A stretch of 31,007 nucleotides of DNA, taken from a virus. Lineage: Duplodnaviria > Heunggongvirae > Uroviricota > Caudoviricetes. Positions 1 to 25,341 of this stretch are shown here, piece after piece. Under the pieces are notes generated by a model. That model saw nothing but the letters and a program-made list of their open reading frames with translations, did no database searches and was not told the DNA's origin. The DNA is taken from IMG/VR virus record IMGVR_UViG_2917881069_000004; one strand, written 5' to 3'. Position 1 is the stretch's first letter, and each line of letters opens with the position of its first letter. The position numbers and the translations under genes were made by a program.

Positions 1-140
1 ATGGAGGCTAATTTTTCTATTTCTGGCAACGGGTTAATGACAGTTACTATTTTTCGAGAAGCTGATACTGACCTGAGGGATGCTGTATATGTCTGGACTG
101 TAATTGAATGGGGTTTACACACGATGGAATCTGGACCAAT

Positions 141-162
141 AAAAAAGCCCGCATCAGCGGGC
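141..162 (-). terminator. Terminator-like hairpin in the chromosomal flank
   Basis: Seen in sequence: A6 (141-146), then GCCCGC (147-152), loop atca, GCGGGC (157-162). On the minus strand the stem is followed by TTTTTTATT. About 135 nt beyond the ssrA-derived core in the direction of ssrA transcription. Confidence 0.45.
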
Positions 163-294
163 TTTAATGTCACAGGGAGTCGCGACTCCGTTGCGTATTC
201 CTTTTTTGTCCTCCCCACCGTCTGGTCGGTGTCCTGATGAGACTTCTAACTTCCTGTTTTTGTTGGTGTTGTGATAACACCATCCAATCATGAT

Positions 295-339
295 TGGTGG
301 AGCTGGCGGGAGTTGAACCCGCGTCCGAAATTCCTACAT
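295..339 (-). other. Prophage attachment-site core: 45-nt copy of the 3' end of ssrA (tmRNA), ending in CCA
   Basis: Reverse complement of 295-339 reads ATGTAGGAATTTCGGACGCGGGTTCAACTCCCGCCAGCTCCACCA, matching the 3' terminus of enterobacterial tmRNA as I recall it. Sequence to the right of 339 no longer matches ssrA, so this is a partial copy and not the gene. Confidence 0.75.
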
Positions 340-489
340 ACCATTTTTACCATAACAAAAACATTAAGTTTCATTTAAAATCAGTCTGTTATTGTTGTTT
401 TGTGTTTGTCCGTTTTACGCTTTTTTAATGCTCTGCCGCCAAAATGCCGCCACATTGTAGGTATTAAGTCTACTATTTATCACCTGTTG

Positions 490-4388: not shown

Positions 4389-4730
4389 ATGGCAATTAAT
4401 GGCGCTGCGGCGACTGTTCCATTAAGCCCAGGTGAACGCCTGAATGGACTTAATCATATTGCGGAATTAAGGGCGAAAGTATTTGGCCTGAATATTGAGT
4501 CAGAGCTTGAGCGGTTTATTAAAGATATACGTGATCCACGGGATGTTAATTATGAACGAAATAAACGGGCACTGGCTGCTATATTCTTTATAGCAAAAAT
4601 TCCAGCTGAACGTCATAGCATCAGCATTAATGAGCTGACCACTGACGAAAAGCGGGAGTTGATTAAAGTAATGAATCATCTTCGTGCAGTGGTGAGCTTA
4701 TTTCCCAGACGGCTAGCCATGCCGAATTAA
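4389..4730 (+). CDS. Early-region hypothetical protein
   Basis: 113-aa ORF co-directional with the early operon; no recognisable motif. Confidence 0.5.
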   Translation: MAINGAAATVPLSPGERLNGLNHIAELRAKVFGLNIESELERFIKDIRDPRDVNYERNKRALAAIFFIAKIPAERHSISINELTTDEKRELIKVMNHLRAVVSLFPRRLAMPN

Positions 4731-4791
4731 CCAATTAATGAAATTCATGGCGTAAACCCGCCGGGCATTCCTTTATCTAAATTCAGGAGAA

Positions 4792-5031
4792 TTGATTATG
4801 CGTAATATTGAAACCCTCTCGACTAAAACCGGACCGGATGACGCAGGACTTAATATTTTACTGACAGAGGCTCGTCTGGAAGAACGTCGGGCAAGAGCTG
4901 AAGCAATGGCAGCTCGCCTTGATAGCCTTGCGTGCCATATCACATCCCGCCAGCTAAACCACGTTGAAGCGGCTGAACTGCTGCGTGTGGCAGCTGAAGC
5001 AATCCAGAACGAAGCGCAGGAGATCCACTAA
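4792..5031 (+). CDS. Early-region hypothetical protein
   Basis: 79-aa ORF (alternative ATG at 4798 preceded by CAGGAGA); stop overlaps the next start. Confidence 0.5.
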   Translation: MIMRNIETLSTKTGPDDAGLNILLTEARLEERRARAEAMAARLDSLACHITSRQLNHVEAAELLRVAAEAIQNEAQEIH

Positions 5032-5258
5032 TGGCTGATGCAATGGATCTCGTACAGCAGCGCGTTGAAGAAGAACGCCAGCGTCATATCCGTGCCGCCC
5101 GTGCCAAAACGCCGGGCGTGTCCCGCGTGCTTTGCATTGAGTGTGAAGCGCCAATTCCGCCAGCACGCCGCCGTGCCATTCCGGATGTGCAGCTTTGCAT
5201 TACCTGTCAGGAAATCGCAGAGCTGAAAGGCAAACATTACAACGGAGGTGCTGTATGA
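5031..5258 (+). CDS. TraR/DksA-family C4 zinc-finger protein
   Basis: 75 aa with CIEC...x17...CITC, the CxxC-x17-CxxC spacing typical of TraR/DksA-type phage proteins. Its stop overlaps the Dam start (ATGA). Confidence 0.7.
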   Translation: MADAMDLVQQRVEEERQRHIRAARAKTPGVSRVLCIECEAPIPPARRRAIPDVQLCITCQEIAELKGKHYNGGAV

Positions 5259-6112
5259 GCACCATCCTGAAATGGGCGGGAAATAAAACCGCCATTATGT
5301 CCGAACTGAAAAAGCATCTTCCTGCTGGCCCGCGACTGGTTGAACCTTTCGCGGGTTCCTGTGCAGTGATGATGGAGACGGAGTACCCCAGCTATCTTGT
5401 TGCGGATATTAATCCTGATTTAATCAACCTCTATAAAAAGGTTGCTGCTGATTGTGAATCGTTTATATCTCGCGCCAGAGTTTTATTTGAGATCGCAAAC
5501 AGGGAGGTGGCTTATTACAACATAAGGCAGGAGTTTAATTACTCAACTGAAATTACTGATTTCATGAAAGCGGTATATTTCCTGTATCTCAATCGTCACG
5601 GTTACCGTGGTTTATGTCGCTATAACAAGAGCGGGCATTTCAACATTCCCTACGGTAATTATAAAAATCCGTATTTCCCTGAAAAAGAAATTCGCGCATT
5701 TGCAGAAAAAGCCCAGCGAGCAACGTTTATCTGCGCCAGCTTTGATGAAACGCTGGCGATGTTGAAGGCGGGGGATGTGGTGTATTGCGATCCGCCGTAT
5801 GACGGTACGTTTTCCGGCTATCACACTGATGGCTTCACTGAGGATGACCAGTATCACCTGGCATCCGTTCTTGAACATCGATCATCTGAAGGTCATCCGG
5901 TCATTGTTTCTAACAGTGACACATCCCTGATTCGTTCGCTGTATCGCAATTTCACTCACCACTACATCAAGGCAAAACGCAGCATCGGCGTGTCGGCTGG
6001 CGAGAGTAAATCTGCAACAGAAATCATTGCTGTTTCCGGGGCGCGCTGCTGGGTGGGATTTGATCCTTCGCGTGGCGTGGATAGTTCTGCTGTGTACGAG
6101 GTGCGTGTATGA
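5255..6112 (+). CDS. dam: DNA N6-adenine methyltransferase (Dam-like), orphan
   Basis: About 285 aa starting [11 protein letters not shown] with GGAGG 7 nt upstream. Motif I-like PFAGSCAV and catalytic DPPY ([10 protein letters not shown]) are present. No adjacent restriction endonuclease candidate. Confidence 0.85.
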
Positions 6113-8522
6113 GTCATGACGATATGAGCAACTCTAGCGGCTTTAACGAGGCCGCAGCAGCATTTTCATGGAACGGCCCGAAAAAGGCCATTAACCCTTA
6201 TCTGGACCCGGCGGAAGTTGCGCCGGTTTCTGCGCTTTCAAACCTGATCACTCTGTACGCTGCCGATAACGAGCAGGAACAACTGCGCCGCGAGGCACTG
6301 AGTGATCAGGTCTGGGAGCGTTATTTCTTTAATGAATCCCGTGATCCTGTCCAACGCGAAATGGAGCAGGATAAGCTCATTAGCCGGGCAAAGCTGGCGC
6401 ATGAGCAGCAGCGTTTTAATCCAGATATGGTCATTCTGGCGGACGTCAATGCCCAGCCTTCCCATATCAGCAAGCCGCTGATGCAACGTATTGAATACTT
6501 CAGCAGCCTGGGCAGGCCAAAGGCTTATTCCCGCTATTTGCGTGAGACGATTAAGCCATGTCTGGAACGACTGGAGCATGTACGCGACAGTCAGCTATCC
6601 ACTTCTTTTCGCTTTATGGCAAGCCATGAAGGGCTGGACGGCCTGCTGATCCTGCCTGAAATGAGTCAGGATCAGGTGAAACGCTTGTCTACCCTTGTCG
6701 CTGCGCATATGAGCATGTGCCTTGATGCAGCTTGTGGCGATTTGTATGTCACCGATGACGTTAAGCCAGAAGAAATCCGCAATACATGGGAAAAGGTGGC
6801 AGCGGAAACCCTGCGTCTGGATGTCATCCCGCCTGCGTTTGAGCAACTCCGCCGGAAAAGAAACCGCCGTAAACCCGTGCCCTATGAACTCATTCCGGGT
6901 TCGCTGGCGCGTATGTTGTGCGCTGACTGGTGGTACCGGAAATTATGGAAGATGCGTTGCGAATGGCGGGAAGAGCAGTTGCGTGCTGTCTGCCTGGTCA
7001 GCAAAAAAGCATCTCCCTATGTCAGCTATGAAGCCGTGATGCATAAACGTGAGCAGCGCCGTAAGTCGCTGGAGTTTTTTCGTTCTCATGAACTGGTGAA
7101 CGAAGACGGCGACACGCTGGACATGGAGGATGTGGTAAACGCCAGCAGCAGCAACTCTGCGCATCGCCGCAATGAGATGATGGCCTGTGTTAAAGGCCTG
7201 GAGCTTATCGCGGAAATGCGCGGTGACTGCGCCGTTTTCTACACCATCACCTGTCCGTCACGTTTCCATTCCACGCTAAATAACGGCAGGCCCAACCCGA
7301 CCTGGACAAATGCGACGGTAAGACAAAGCAGTGATTATCTGGTCGGCATGTTTGCTGCATTTCGTAAGGCGATGCACAAAGCCGGATTGCGCTGGTATGG
7401 CGTGCGGGTGGCTGAGCCGCATCATGACGGTACAGTTCACTGGCACCTGTTGTGTTTTATGCGCAAAAAAGATCGCCGCGCCATTACTGCTTTGTTGCGT
7501 AAGTTTGCCATTCGTGAAGACCGCGAGGAGCTGGGGAATAACACGGGACCACGCTTTAAGTCTGAGTTGATTAACCCGCGCAAAGGAACGCCGACAAGCT
7601 ACATCGCGAAATATATCAGCAAGAACATTGACGGGCGTGGTCTGGCTGGCGAGATCAGCAAGGAAACGGGTAAATCTCTGCGTGATAACGCTGAATACGT
7701 TAATGCCTGGGCGTCTCTGCATCGTGTTCAGCAATTCCGCTTCTTTGGTATTCCGGGGCGTCAGGCTTACCGTGAACTGCGATTGCTGGCTGGTCAGGCG
7801 GCAAGGCAACAGGGCGACAAAAAGCAGGTGCGCCGGTACTGGATAACCCGCGCCTTGATGCCATCCTGGCTGCTGCTGATGCTGGTTGTTTTGCCACTTA
7901 CATCATGAAGCAGGGTGGTGTACTGGTTCCCCGCAAATATCACCTCATCAGAACTGCTTATGAAATTAACGAAGAGCCGACCGCCTATGGCGATCACGGC
8001 ATTCGTATTTATGGCATCTGGTCACCCATTGCAGAGGGCAAGATCTGCACTCATGCAGTGAAGTGGAAAATGGTTCGTAAAGCCGTTGACGTTCAGGAGG
8101 CGGTAGCCGACCAGGGCGCTTGCGCCCCTTGGACTCGTGGCAATAACTGTCCCCTTGCTGAAAATTTGAACCAACATGAGAAAGATAAATCAGCAGACGG
8201 GGATACCAGAACGGACATTTCCTGCATGGATGACAAGGAATTGCACGATTACCTGCACAGTATGGGCAAAAAAGAGCACCGGGAACTGGCAGCAAGATTA
8301 CGCCTGGTTAAACCGAAACGGCGTAAAGACCACAAACAGCGAATTACAGACCATCAGCGTCAGCAGCTCGTCTATGAACTGAAGTCCAGAGGATTTGATG
8401 GCAGCGAGAAAGAAGTCGATTTACTGCTTCGTGGCGGCAGTATTCCGTCAGGAGCAGGCCTGCGTATCTTCTATCGGAACCAGCGTTTGCAGGAAGATGA
8501 TAAGTGGCGGGATCTGTATTAA
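6109..8522 (+). CDS. A: Rolling-circle replication initiator (P2 gpA-like); apparent 1-nt frame shift near 7810-7820
   Basis: HUH-type motif [10 protein letters not shown]. Track ORFs 6109..7908 and 7905..8522 are continuous in sense (..QGDKK / [32 protein letters not shown]..) if the A5 run is A6. Confidence 0.8.
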
Positions 8523-13692: not shown

Positions 13693-13710
13693 TGTGTGGT
13701 TGTCGGTACA
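13693..13710 (+). promoter_or_regulatory. Late-promoter activator dyad TGT-N12-ACA (PO-like)
   Basis: TGTgtggttgtcggtACA in the P/O divergent intergenic region, centred about 87 nt upstream of the O start. P2 late promoters carry this dyad near -55 (established). Confidence 0.55.
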
Positions 13711-19599: not shown

Positions 19600-19617
19600 T
19601 GTATCAGCACTGATACA
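19600..19617 (+). promoter_or_regulatory. Late-promoter activator dyad TGT-N12-ACA (PV-like)
   Basis: Perfect palindrome TGTATCAGCACTGATACA, centred about 55 nt upstream of the V ATG. Confidence 0.55.
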
Positions 19618-21493: not shown

Positions 21494-22091
21494 TCTGCTG
21501 CCACCGGGTTCAACGCCACTGGAGCGCCGACTGGCGCAAGCGTGCAGCGGGATTTCTGATTTGCAGGTACCGCTGCGTGACCTGTGGGATCCGGCTACCT
21601 GTCCGGTCAGTTTCCTGCCTTATCTCGCCTGGGCGTTCTCTGTGGATCGCTGGGACGAGGACTGGACGGAAAGCGTCAAGCGCCAGGTGGTAAAGGATGC
21701 TTTTTATATCCATCAGCATAAAGGAACCACCAGTGCCGTGCGGCGGGTGGTGGAGCCGTTCGGCTTTCTGATCCGCATTATTGAGTGGTGGCAGACCGGA
21801 GAGACACCGGGCACGTTTCGCCTGGACATCGGCGTGCAGGACCAGGGCATCACTGAAGATACCTATCTGGAACTTGAGCGGCTGATAAGCGATGCCAAAC
21901 CATGTAGCCGTCACATGATCGGCATGTCCATCAATCTGCAGACCAGCGGCCCGCATTGGGTGGGGGCAGCCAGTTATCTTGGCGAAGAAATCACGATCTA
22001 TCCGTATATCAACGAAACAATTATTTCTGGCGGCACCGCGCATGAAGGCGGGGCGGTCCACGTTATTGACACAGTGAGAGTGAATCCATGA
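21486..22091 (+). CDS. I: Baseplate/tail protein (P2 gpI-like)
   Basis: 201 aa, overlapping J's stop; position before the tail fibre gene. Confidence 0.75.
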   Translation: MNSLLPPGSTPLERRLAQACSGISDLQVPLRDLWDPATCPVSFLPYLAWAFSVDRWDEDWTESVKRQVVKDAFYIHQHKGTTSAVRRVVEPFGFLIRIIEWWQTGETPGTFRLDIGVQDQGITEDTYLELERLISDAKPCSRHMIGMSINLQTSGPHWVGAASYLGEEITIYPYINETIISGGTAHEGGAVHVIDTVRVNP

Positions 22092-23491
22092 GCACAAAAT
22101 TTTATACCCTGCTGACGGAGATTGGTGCGGCGAAACTTGCCAGCGCCGCCGCGCTCGGTGTGCCGCTTAAAATTACCCATATGGCGGTGGGGGATGGTAG
22201 TGGAGCATTGCCGACGCCGGACGCAAAGCAGACTGCACTGGTAAATGAGAAACGCCGGGCTGCGCTGAATATGCTCTATATCGACCCGCAAAACAGCAGT
22301 CAGATTATTGCTGAACAGGTGATCCCTGAAAACGAGGGCGGTTGGTGGATACGTGAAGTGGGACTTTTTGATGAGTCAGGGGCATTGATTGCCGTGGGCA
22401 ACTGCCCGGAAAGCTACAAGCCGCAACTGGCTGAAGGCAGCGGGCGCACCCAGACTGTGCGCATGGTGCTGATTACCAGCAGCACGGAGAATATCATCCT
22501 GAAAATCGACCCTGCCGTCGTGCTGGCAACCCGCAAGTATGTGGATGATAAGGTACTGGAGCTGAAGGTGTACGTGGATGACCTGATGGCAAAACATCTT
22601 GCCGCACCGGACCCGCATTCACAGTACGCGCCAAAAGCCAGCCCGACGTTTACCGGAACCCCCAAAGCGCCAACTCCAGAGGCAGGGAATAACACCACGC
22701 AGGTTGCGACCACCGCGTTTGTTCAGGCGGCACTGCTCACCCTGATTGACGGTGCGCCAGCCACGCTGGACACGCTGAAAGAAATTGCAGCTGCTATTAA
22801 TAATGACCCGAAATTCAGTACCACCATTAACAATGCGCTGGCACTCAAAGCACCGCTGTCGAGTCCTGCACTCACCGGAACGCCAACAGCACCTACTGCG
22901 GCACAGTCGGTCAACAATACACAGATTGCCACCACGGCTTTTGTGAAATCGGCAATTGCGGCAATGGTGGGTTCTGCACCTGCGGCACTGGATACGCTGA
23001 ACGAACTGGCGGCGGCGCTGGGGAATGACCCGAACTTTGCCACGACAATGCTCAATTCGCTGGCGGGAAAACAACCGCTGGATAATACGCTGACTAATTT
23101 GAGTGGAAAGGATGTTGCTGGTCTTCTCGCATACCTTGGTTTGGGAGAAGCGGCAAAACGGGATGTGGGAACGGGGGTAAATCAGATACCGGATATGAGC
23201 TTTCAGGGTTATGGGCCTAATTGGGTCAAAACTGTAGGTGGAATGATTATTCAAAAGGGATCGCTGGGATTTAGTATTGGTTCAAATCTATCAAGCACTA
23301 CATTTCCGATCGCGTTTGCTTCAGGGGCAGTAGTCAATCTAACGTGGTCTGACGTCACGTCAGGTGGCGCAGCTCCGGGGACTACAATGTCTTATGGAAT
23401 AGTCGTGGGGTCACAAACCAGGACAGGTTTTCAGGCCTGGATGAGTGGTGCCGGTGGATTCAACCTCTCATATATAGCTGTGGGGTATTGA
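22088..23491 (+). CDS. H: Tail fibre protein (P2 gpH-like)
   Basis: 467 aa. N-terminus MSTKFYTLLTEIGAAKLASAAALG is typical of P2-family fibres; internal tandem motifs (PTFTGTPKAPT..TTAFVQAAL / PALTGTPTAPT..TTAFVKSAI). Confidence 0.85.
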   Translation: MSTKFYTLLTEIGAAKLASAAALGVPLKITHMAVGDGSGALPTPDAKQTALVNEKRRAALNMLYIDPQNSSQIIAEQVIPENEGGWWIREVGLFDESGALIAVGNCPESYKPQLAEGSGRTQTVRMVLITSSTENIILKIDPAVVLATRKYVDDKVLELKVYVDDLMAKHLAAPDPHSQYAPKASPTFTGTPKAPTPEAGNNTTQVATTAFVQAALLTLIDGAPATLDTLKEIAAAINNDPKFSTTINNALALKAPLSSPALTGTPTAPTAAQSVNNTQIATTAFVKSAIAAMVGSAPAALDTLNELAAALGNDPNFATTMLNSLAGKQPLDNTLTNLSGKDVAGLLAYLGLGEAAKRDVGTGVNQIPDMSFQGYGPNWVKTVGGMIIQKGSLGFSIGSNLSSTTFPIAFASGAVVNLTWSDVTSGGAAPGTTMSYGIVVGSQTRTGFQAWMSGAGGFNLSYIAVGY

Positions 23492-23919
23492 TAATGAAAT
23501 ACAGATATTCTGGCGAGACAAATTCTTTTTATCCCTGGGCATTATTTGATGATTACACGCGAGTTAATGCATGGCCTGAAAATGGGGTGGATGTTGACGA
23601 AGATATTTTTACGGAATATAGCGGCACACCGCCAGAAGGCAAAACTCGCGGCCCGGATGTTAATGGGAAACCATCATGGATAGATGCACAGCCACCATCT
23701 AAAAAAGAACAAATTATCGCTGCGGACTTTCAGAAATCAGCATTACTGGCGGAGGCAACGGCGATTATCGCCCCACTGGCAGATGCTCAGGCAGGAGGCT
23801 ACATCGACGATGTTGACGTGCCACGTCTGGCTGAATGGCAGCGGTACCGCTACAAACTGACTAAAGTCGATACCAGTACCGCGCCTGACATTACCTTTCC
23901 ACCGAAGCCGGAGGTGTAG
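23488..23919 (+). CDS. G: Tail fibre assembly chaperone (P2 gpG-like)
   Basis: 143 aa with C-terminus ..YRYKLTKVDTSTAPDITFPPKPEV, typical of Tfa chaperones. Confidence 0.8.
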   Translation: MIMKYRYSGETNSFYPWALFDDYTRVNAWPENGVDVDEDIFTEYSGTPPEGKTRGPDVNGKPSWIDAQPPSKKEQIIAADFQKSALLAEATAIIAPLADAQAGGYIDDVDVPRLAEWQRYRYKLTKVDTSTAPDITFPPKPEV

Positions 23920-24028
23920 GCCATTTGATATCTGGTGCGATGGTCGTATCTACCACCTCAAGCGCATCCAGATAATCTGGCCATGTATAGAAAATTTCCG
24001 GCAAATAAGAGCAATGAATCGCCCTGAA
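23894..24028 (-). pseudogene. Remnant of an inverted second tail-fibre-assembly gene (C-terminal 45 codons, no start codon)
   Basis: Minus-strand open frame reads ..LPEIFYTWPDYLDALEVVDTTIAPDIKWPTPPASVER, parallel to the C-terminus of G (VDTSTAPDITFP). It converges tail-to-tail on G and overlaps its last codons. Confidence 0.5.
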
Positions 24029-24075
24029 TCAGCATTATTTTGATTTTTTCTGTGAGCGGACAAATACCGTCATTT

Positions 24076-24093
24076 TGTGTGAATAACGGTACA
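24076..24093 (+). promoter_or_regulatory. Late-promoter activator dyad TGT-N12-ACA (PF-like)
   Basis: TGTgtgaataacggtACA, centred about 85 nt upstream of the FI ATG; CAGGAGG RBS at 24155-24161. Confidence 0.55.
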
Positions 24094-24169
24094 ACTGCGC
24101 TTAGCTGTTTGTCAGGCACAATCACTTCAATATAGGGCGAAGCCTAATCCAATCAGGAGGTTCGCCACT

Positions 24170-25341
24170 ATGGCTCAGGATTACCACCACGGGGTGCGCG
24201 TTGTTGAAGTCAACGAAGGCACCCGATCCATTACCACGGTGAGCACCGCCATCGTGGGTATGGTCTGCACGGGCGATGATGCCGATGCAAAAATGTTTCC
24301 TCTTAATAAACCCGTGCTGATCACTGATGTACTGACCGCCAGCGGTAAAGCGGGTGAGTCCGGCACGCTGGCCCGTTCGCTGGATGCCATCGCTGACCAG
24401 GCAAAACCCGTGACCGTTGTTGTGCGTGTGCCGCAGGGTGAAACGGAAGAAGAAACCACGACCAATATCATCGGCGCAGTGACTGCTGAAGGTAAAAAAA
24501 CAGGCATGAAAGCCCTGTTATCTGCCCAGACACAGCTCGGCGTTAAACCGCGCATTCTCGGCGTGCCAGGTCACGATAACAAAGCCGTTGCTACTGAGTT
24601 GCTGAGTGTGGCGCAAAGCTGCGTGGGTTTGCCTACCTGTCAGCGTATGGCTGCAAGACGGTACAGGAGGCGATCACTTACCGTGAAAACTTCAGCCAGC
24701 GCGAAGGAATGCTGATCTGGCCTGACTTTACTGGCTGGGACACGGTGCTGAATGCCGAAGCAATGGCATATGCCACCGCTCGTGCGCTTGGTCTGCGTGC
24801 CAAAATTGATGAGCAGACCGGGTGGCACAAAAGCCTGTCCAACGTGGGCGTGAACGGTGTCACCGGAATTTCTGCAGATGTGTTCTGGGATCTGCAGGAC
24901 CCGGCAACCGATGCAGGTCTGCTGAACCAGAACGACGTCACCACGCTTGTGCGTAAAGACGGGTTCCGCTTCTGGGGTTCCCGCTGTCTGAGCGATGATC
25001 CGCTCTTTGCCTTCGAAAACTACACCCGCACGGCGCAGGTGCTGACGGACACAATGGCAGAAGCGCATATGTGGGCGGTGGACAAACCGCTGAACCCGTC
25101 GCTGGCCCGCGACATTATCGAAGGTATCCGCGCCAAAATGCGCAGCCTGGTCAGTCAGGGCTATCTCATTGGTGGTGATTGCTGGCTGGACGAGTCGGTG
25201 AATGACAAAGACACGCTGAAAGCCGGAAAACTCACCATCGATTACGACTACACGCCAGTACCGCCACTTGAAAACCTGATGCTGCGTCAGCGCATCACCG
25301 ATCAGTACCTGGTGAATTTCTCCAGCCAGGTAAGCGCGTAA
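24170..25341 (+). CDS. FI: Tail sheath protein (P2 gpFI-like); apparent 1-nt frame shift near 24616-24620
   Basis: Track ORFs 24170..24715 and 24709..25341 sum to about 390 aa (P2 FI is about 396 aa). The frame is restored if caaag is caaaag (..[41 protein letters not shown]..). Confidence 0.8.

Follow-up and report, generated by a model that had tools for sequence, protein, structure and literature searches.

The interval between the tail-fibre assembly gene G and the tail sheath gene FI of a P2-like (Peduoviridae) prophage is very probably the scar of one illegitimate deletion, which destroyed a Gin/Cin/Pin-type tail-fibre switch. The window, i.e. the whole stretch of 31,007 nucleotides analyzed (IMG/VR record IMGVR_UViG_2917881069_000004), aligns colinearly with Escherichia phage Cartapus for most of its length, with ~95% identity. 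Its tail genes follow the P2-like module order V-W-J-I-H-G / FI-FII-E-T-U-D, again colinear with Cartapus (Table 1). G encodes a complete chaperone, which matches the Pfam family Caudo_TAP (PF02413) with 95.7 bits over profile positions 3-131 of 131, and the identical gene is called in the source assembly. FI is apparently split by a 1-nt gap at 24620 and is otherwise 96-97% identical to FI of Cartapus and of a prophage in Escherichia coli 52F4. On the strand opposite to G and converging on it, a stop-free frame at 23894-24028 translates into FRAIHCSYLPEIFYTWPDYLDALEVVDTTIAPDIKWPTPPASVER and ends with a TAA stop at 23891-23893, overlapping G by 29 nt. A preliminary description of this DNA had reported the frame as an inverted, start-less Tfa fragment in a cargo-free interval of about 250 bp. 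Frame and orientation were recovered in the translation, and the G-FI interval (23920-24169, 250 bp), presumably the Z/fun position of P2, contains no plausible cargo ORF.

Table 1. Features of the G-FI region and related positions (window coordinates unless a locus is named).
Feature	Position	Strand	Description
H, tail fibre gene	22088..23491	+	467 aa; Pfam Phage_tail_fib 214 bits, Gp53-like_C 28.8 bits
H, constant part	to ~23123		
H, variable tip	from ~23150		Gp53-like_C domain
Orphan left crossover site	23124..23149		gix/cix/pix-type, 26 bp, TTCTCGCATACCTTGGTTTGGGAGAA; in H, in frame (encodes ..LLAYLGLGE..)
G, tail-fibre assembly (chaperone) gene	23494..23919	+	complete, 141 aa from ATG; belongs to the expressed cassette
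tfa' remnant	23891..23983	-	last 30 codons (WPDYLDALEVVDTTIAPDIKWPTPPASVER) and stop of the alternative inverted chaperone gene
Deletion junction	23981..23985		CCAT (23981-23984) common to both parents; from side-by-side alignment
Invertase 3' remnant	23983..24027	+	last 14 codons (MYRKFPANKSNESP) and stop
Putative Ogr-dependent late promoter element of the FI operon	24076..24093	+	TGTGTGAATAACGGTACA, TGT-N12-ACA
FI, tail sheath gene	24170..25341	+	right-hand neighbor
29-nt overlap of convergent tfa genes, window	23891-23919		
29-nt overlap, L001	4640-4668		
29-nt overlap, L002	5023-5051		
29-nt overlap, L008	3688-3716		
29-nt overlap, L035	3187-3215		
Silent cassette of L009, closest relative of the H tip and G	4657-5408		likewise in L010 and L011
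1-nt indels	4481, 7824, 8582, 8655, 12284, 13331, 14357, 17094, 17806, 19349, 24620, 28803, 29737, 29980		relative to Cartapus

The larger part of the minus-strand frame originates from a second, inverted chaperone gene (tfa'). The 45-residue peptide scored 29.1 bits (E 1.2e-6) against Caudo_TAP, above the curated cut-off of 22.1 bits, and its residues 15-41 aligned with the last profile positions, 105-131 of 131. The best counterpart is a complete Tfa of 145 aa from the Limnobaculum eriocheiris locus L005, whose C-terminal end agrees with the last 30 residues of the frame in 28 positions (BLASTP, E 1e-18 in a single comparison); this Tfa itself obtained 97.5 bits with Caudo_TAP. Outside of the overlap with G, the nucleotide sequences of remnant and L005 agree in 63 of 64 positions. 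Intact Tfa genes in the loci fetched via G homologues encode 136-204 aa ending in ...LAQYNLWLDYLDALE.VDT..APDIKWPTPPAS... On these scores, the Tfa similarity is beyond chance, and the Tfa-like C-terminus noticed in the preliminary description was borne out. Of the 45 codons, W16..R45 only (23894-23983) are tfa-derived; codons 1-15 have a different origin. Homology to five intact tfa' genes ends at 23983/23984. A complete chaperone gene with a start codon and ~130-200 aa is not present; the 30 C-terminal codons are a pseudogene fragment.

The 29-nt overlap of the convergent tfa genes is identical in every phage examined (Table 1), so that the two chaperones use one piece of DNA for their last 9 codons, each gene reading its own strand. 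Overlap and remnant belong to a 252-bp module (23733-23984), which encodes the C-terminal half of G on one strand and the end of tfa' on the other. The module is 85-92% identical to the loci L005, L016, L014, L003 and L024, its matches coming from Limnobaculum, Trabulsiella/Yokenella-type and other phages, and the flanks are unalignable. The mosaic boundary in the middle of G is sharp and located at the edge of the module.

Codons 1-15 of the frame read as the antisense of the end of a Gin/Pin-type serine invertase gene, 14 codons and the stop. They are open only incidentally, because they are antisense to this 3' remnant. Intact invertases of relatives have 188 aa, contain the domains Resolvase and HTH_7, and end in ..STIYRKFPANKSNESP before the stop codon. 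When the whole window was searched with the E. coli 52F4 invertase (tblastn), only residues 175-188 matched, at 23983-24024, with 13 of 14 residues identical. No further invertase similarity was present anywhere in the window, and these residues are all that is left of a serine invertase gene (Resolvase and HTH_7) beside the segment. From 23981/23983 rightwards, the window shares 95-97% of its nucleotides with Cartapus and 52F4 through the intergenic region and FI. The 45-codon frame is hence a chimera of the 3' end of tfa' and the antisense of the 3' end of an invertase gene. The invertase remnant beside tfa' was missed in the preliminary description. Because the 45-nt invertase end directly adjoins the tfa' piece, the deletion as such is considered proven.

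A crossover site of the switch is preserved inside H, in frame at the boundary of the constant and the variable part. It is the sole match in the window to the pattern TTCTCN4ACCN2GGTN4GAGAA at ≤3 mismatches, has 0 mismatches, and compares to 0.06 matches expected by chance. The left sites of Cartapus and E. coli 52F4 agree with it in all 26 positions. Both relatives possess a second, inverted 26-bp site directly upstream of the invertase gene. No inverted-repeat partner of the left site was detected in 22000-24300, so of two inverted sites flanking an invertible segment one is left. The suggestion that gix/hix-like sites might be found at the edges of the fragment was right in so far as one 26-bp site exists, but this is located in H; the edges are free of such sites and the partner is gone. 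The DNA of H is 94-95% identical to Cartapus and 52F4 up to 23197 and 23150, respectively, and unrelated beyond. Position 23150 is one base past the crossover site, and 23197 corresponds to the end of a 75-nt inverted-repeat arm in Cartapus. Instead of two tail-to-tail cassettes for fibre tip and chaperone, the window contains one complete cassette (Hv and G) and no Hv'. The invertase genes of Gin and Hin systems contain a Fis-dependent recombinational enhancer in their 5' part. The region in which such an enhancer would be located is deleted in the window.

Relatives carry the intact switch at the same position. The order H-tfa-tfa'(inverted)-Hv'(inverted, Gp53-like_C)-invertase-FI is present in Cartapus, pro483 and the E. 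coli 52F4 prophage, which supplies the inverted H'-G' cassette and the Hin/Gin-type invertase that the preliminary description had advised to look for. Most of the fetched viral contigs spanning G to FI show the same full order. The invertase-FI junction matching the window occurs in 1809 of 5426 complete E. coli genomes. Among P2-like phages and prophages, invertible tail-fibre segments are known from Cartapus, pro483, the prophages of EPEC E2348/69, and carotovoricin Er with the invertase Ein. For P2-like prophages of EPEC, the inversion has been demonstrated experimentally (PMC4272514). The window shares with these P2-like switches the location between G and FI, a backbone identity of 94-97%, the identical left site, and the 29-nt tfa overlap. 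In contrast to them, it lacks the tfa' codons 1 to ~115, Hv', the right site, and the invertase codons 1-174, and its allele of H tip and G is rare. The relatives of the window also resemble the classical systems Mu G/Gin, P1 C/Cin, e14 P/Pin and p15B Min: a constant 5' part of the fibre gene with an in-frame 26-bp site at the boundary, tail-to-tail Hv-tfa cassettes, and a Resolvase and HTH_7 invertase just outside the right site. The window itself differs from these by retaining remains only, one site, one complete cassette and 14 invertase codons, i.e. a dead system, and from Mu or P1 also by its P2-like (Peduoviridae) backbone.

The cassette expressed in the window has its nearest counterparts in a silent position. 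Three IMG/VR contigs (L009-L011) contain a similar H tip (87-89% amino acid identity) and G (68%) in the silent inverted cassette beside the invertase gene, and the cassette of the window is therefore regarded as one of the two alternatives of a switch. No match of ≥85% to the H tip and G was found in the 5426 E. coli genomes or in phage records. A scan of genome contigs with G returned three partial relatives only, and an exact look-up of G retrieved the source contig and one Logan contig, nothing else. An intact version of this prophage, combining its H tip and G with a full-length tfa', was not found in contigs, phage records, or the 5426 E. coli genomes. Size and content of the deleted DNA are consequently estimated from relatives with other cassettes.

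The junction was located by aligning the window side by side with proxies of both parents, L005, L016, L014, L003, L024 and L021 for tfa' and L008 and L001 for the invertase. The tfa' sequences read ...ATAATCT(A/G)GCCAT up to the junction and the invertase sequences ...CTACCAT followed by TTATAGAAAA..., whereas the window reads ...ATAATCTGGCCATGTATAGAAAA... Beyond the shared CCAT, the G at 23985 differs from both invertase proxies and from L005. The junction sequence had 0 exact matches elsewhere in viral and metagenome contig collections. As only CCAT is shared and neither end of the deletion is at a crossover site, the event was probably an illegitimate, microhomology-associated deletion, not a homologous or site-specific recombination.

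The proposed ancestor had the order H constant part-left site-Hv-G-tfa'(inverted)-Hv'(inverted)-right site-invertase-PF promoter-FI, with the segment in the orientation joining the Gp53-like tip and G to H. A single deletion of ~1.3-2 kb, by slippage or end joining at the 4-nt microhomology CCAT, would have eliminated Hv' completely, together with the 5' three-quarters of tfa', the invertase codons 1-174 and the right crossover site between them. Measured on Cartapus, the loss would amount to ~1.27 kb, and on pro483-type cassettes it would be larger. Left over are 30 tfa' codons, of which 29 nt are shared with the 3' end of G, 14 invertase codons, and the orphan left site in H. The deletion seems to be recent, because the part belonging to the remnant alone is identical to the intact allele in 63 of 64 nt. 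The Tfa match, the invertase remnant, the orphan site and the intact relatives together uphold the earlier idea of a lost alternative fibre/chaperone cassette. Its variant, a recombination that swapped the fibre tip, is superfluous as an explanation of the scar, although the module of H tip and G is clearly mosaic.

In a comparison over 15.5 kb, the window did not differ from contig PDIG01000035.1 (assembly GCA_004745185.1). PDIG00000000 is a 40x Ion Torrent draft genome of strain E2661, a member of Escherichia cryptic clade II (PMC6639607). Compared to Cartapus, ~14 single-base indels were located within colinear coding regions (Table 1), splitting FI, T, U, D, S, the replication gene and others. 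Since the source is a 40x Ion Torrent draft, these indels, including the frameshift in FI, are probably sequencing errors rather than prophage decay, and the interpretation as a decaying cryptic prophage was set aside. A Logan assembly contig reproduces 23140-24499, with the junction free of mismatches. This contig breaks at 23140, inside the crossover site, and since it probably derives from the same reads, it confirms the junction in a manner that is not fully independent. The left flank of the window (1-462) is ~88% identical to E. coli chromosomes, fitting a cryptic clade II host rather than E. coli proper.

An assembly artefact, in which an intact segment was collapsed or skipped, might be considered for a culture with both orientations and short single-end Ion Torrent reads. 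The quality of the draft with its ~14 single-base indels and the break of the Logan contig in the crossover site, as expected for a branching assembly graph, are compatible with it. However, the joined sequences share 4 nt, far too few for a mis-join by a de Bruijn or overlap assembler, and with mixed orientations an assembly would be interrupted at the inverted repeats instead of connecting the middle of tfa' to the 3' end of the invertase gene. Two different assemblies also have the identical junction, and analogous scars exist in complete, finished E. coli genomes, leaving an artefact very improbable. Somewhat less remote, yet still decidedly unlikely, is an import, the counterpart of the fibre-tip swap suggested in the preliminary description. 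In this case the tfa' piece would never have been part of a complete cassette in this phage and would represent the tail end of an acquired Hv-G module with its right end within tfa' and the resident invertase gene. Fibre modules are clearly exchanged. E. coli genomes and phage records contain nothing closely similar to the DNA of H tip and G, and 23733-23984 behaves as one 252-bp module of 85-92% identity to Limnobaculum, Yokenella-type and other phages between unalignable flanks. The right-hand join, however, lacks homology apart from CCAT, so that an illegitimate event would be needed anyway. A replacement removing Hv', the right site and 174 invertase codons would in effect be the same deletion, and on the left the boundary coincides precisely with the crossover site, as it does in an ordinary switch resident in a phage.

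The invertase itself was present in the ancestor and could have excised the cassette together with a part of its own gene by an aberrant recombination of a crossover site with a pseudo-site; serine invertases occasionally act on secondary sites. The right site, though, was inside the deleted DNA, the left site is intact 830 bp away, the junction does not resemble the ACC-NN-GGT core, and the breakpoints of independent scars are scattered. An invertase-mediated deletion was rejected, as neither end coincides with a crossover site, and its probability is practically negligible. Finally, the remains might be kept as a functional element: a 37-aa ORF with a TTG start (23891-24004), an RNA running antisense to G at its 3' end, or a hairpin terminating the transcription of the G operon. 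The tfa' remnant does contain an imperfect inverted repeat (GGCCATTTGATATCTGG / CCAGATAATCTGGCC) at 23919-23982, with a folding z of -2.0 relative to shuffled sequences, and the A-to-G exchange at 23979 (L to P), the sole nucleotide difference from the intact L005 allele, extends and strengthens the stem. A z of -2.0 is weak, as 7 of 200 shuffles folded equally well. A terminator-like site was not detected in the G-FI interval, where a T tract is absent, nor did any Rfam family match 23700-24300 at E ≤ 1. The ORF spans the junction and therefore is not ancestral, the junction sequence occurs nowhere else in the collections scanned, and other scars retain different lengths. A retained function is thus scarcely credible, and the remnants left by the illegitimate deletion are most likely without function.

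Similar losses have occurred elsewhere; in all, at least four independent scars with different breakpoints were observed. L021 (IMGVR_UViG_3300013352_000046, position 5477) has lost 1212 bp relative to positions 4740-5951 of L022, with which it is 97.6% identical. Of tfa' it keeps ~83 codons and lacks the 5' part, and Hv' and the right site are gone together with the complete invertase gene. In E. coli HCM-21C-2 (L035, 3187-3608), a truncated tfa' directly adjoins the final 35 codons of the invertase gene; PGAP lists this invertase remnant as a pseudogene, 'helix-turn-helix domain-containing protein, missing N-terminus'. As in the window, HCM-21C-2 and L021 combine a truncated inverted tfa' with a truncated or absent invertase directly upstream of FI. 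E. coli Res13-Lact-PEB20-37-A (L036, 3185-3502) likewise has a truncated tfa immediately before FI. These scars are events independent of that in the window, because breakpoints and cassettes differ. L020 (IMGVR_UViG_2636415690_000004, 5522-7947) possesses only a short Hv' remnant and ~1.8 kb of extra DNA, and its invertase is split in two overlapping HSPs, likely by a frameshift; it is another degenerate switch, possibly with an insertion. Degenerate or locked switches are also known from cryptic prophage remnants of K-12. Like the window, degenerate or locked switches retain a single fibre cassette, and carotovoricin clusters are also found without an invertase. In carotovoricin, a P2-type tailocin, the invertase gene ein is present in only 47% of the clusters (PMC13195805).

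The scar in the window is a case of ordinary, recurrent phage genome decay and a new instance of a well-known type of remnant; it opens no new biological question. A further reaching interpretation, in which the recurrent loss of switches by deletion is selected rather than neutral and both the 250-bp module and the orphan site serve as anchors of cassette exchange, is unlikely. If true, locking could be favored where one receptor type dominates, or where it stops the cross-talk between invertases of co-resident elements. The ~250-bp module of convergent Tfa C-termini is highly conserved between phages from different genera (85-92% at the DNA level), although the sequences on either side are unrelated. 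It might be a homologous landing pad for cassette exchange or re-acquisition, with a second anchor provided by the orphan site in H.

Since a single site is left and an invertase is lacking in cis, the tip of the fibre is no longer able to switch, and the phage would be fixed on a single receptor specificity. For host-range prediction, the prophage is to be read with a single fixed receptor-binding tip, not with a switchable pair. The minus-strand ORF of 42-45 codons called in the source assembly is to be annotated as a chimeric pseudogene, no gene. The repeated loss of P2-type fibre switches by small illegitimate deletions is relevant to deriving the host range of phages and tailocins from genomes. 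The operons V..H-G and FI..D and the promoter element of FI are untouched, so the tail genes should still be expressible. Elements of the form TGT-N12-ACA are located upstream of O (13693-13710), V (19600-19617) and FI. They fit the consensus of P2 late promoters and the operon structure (PMC3931495). The copies upstream of O and FI are closely alike, TGTGTGGTTGTCGGTACAA and TGTGTGAATAACGGTACAA.
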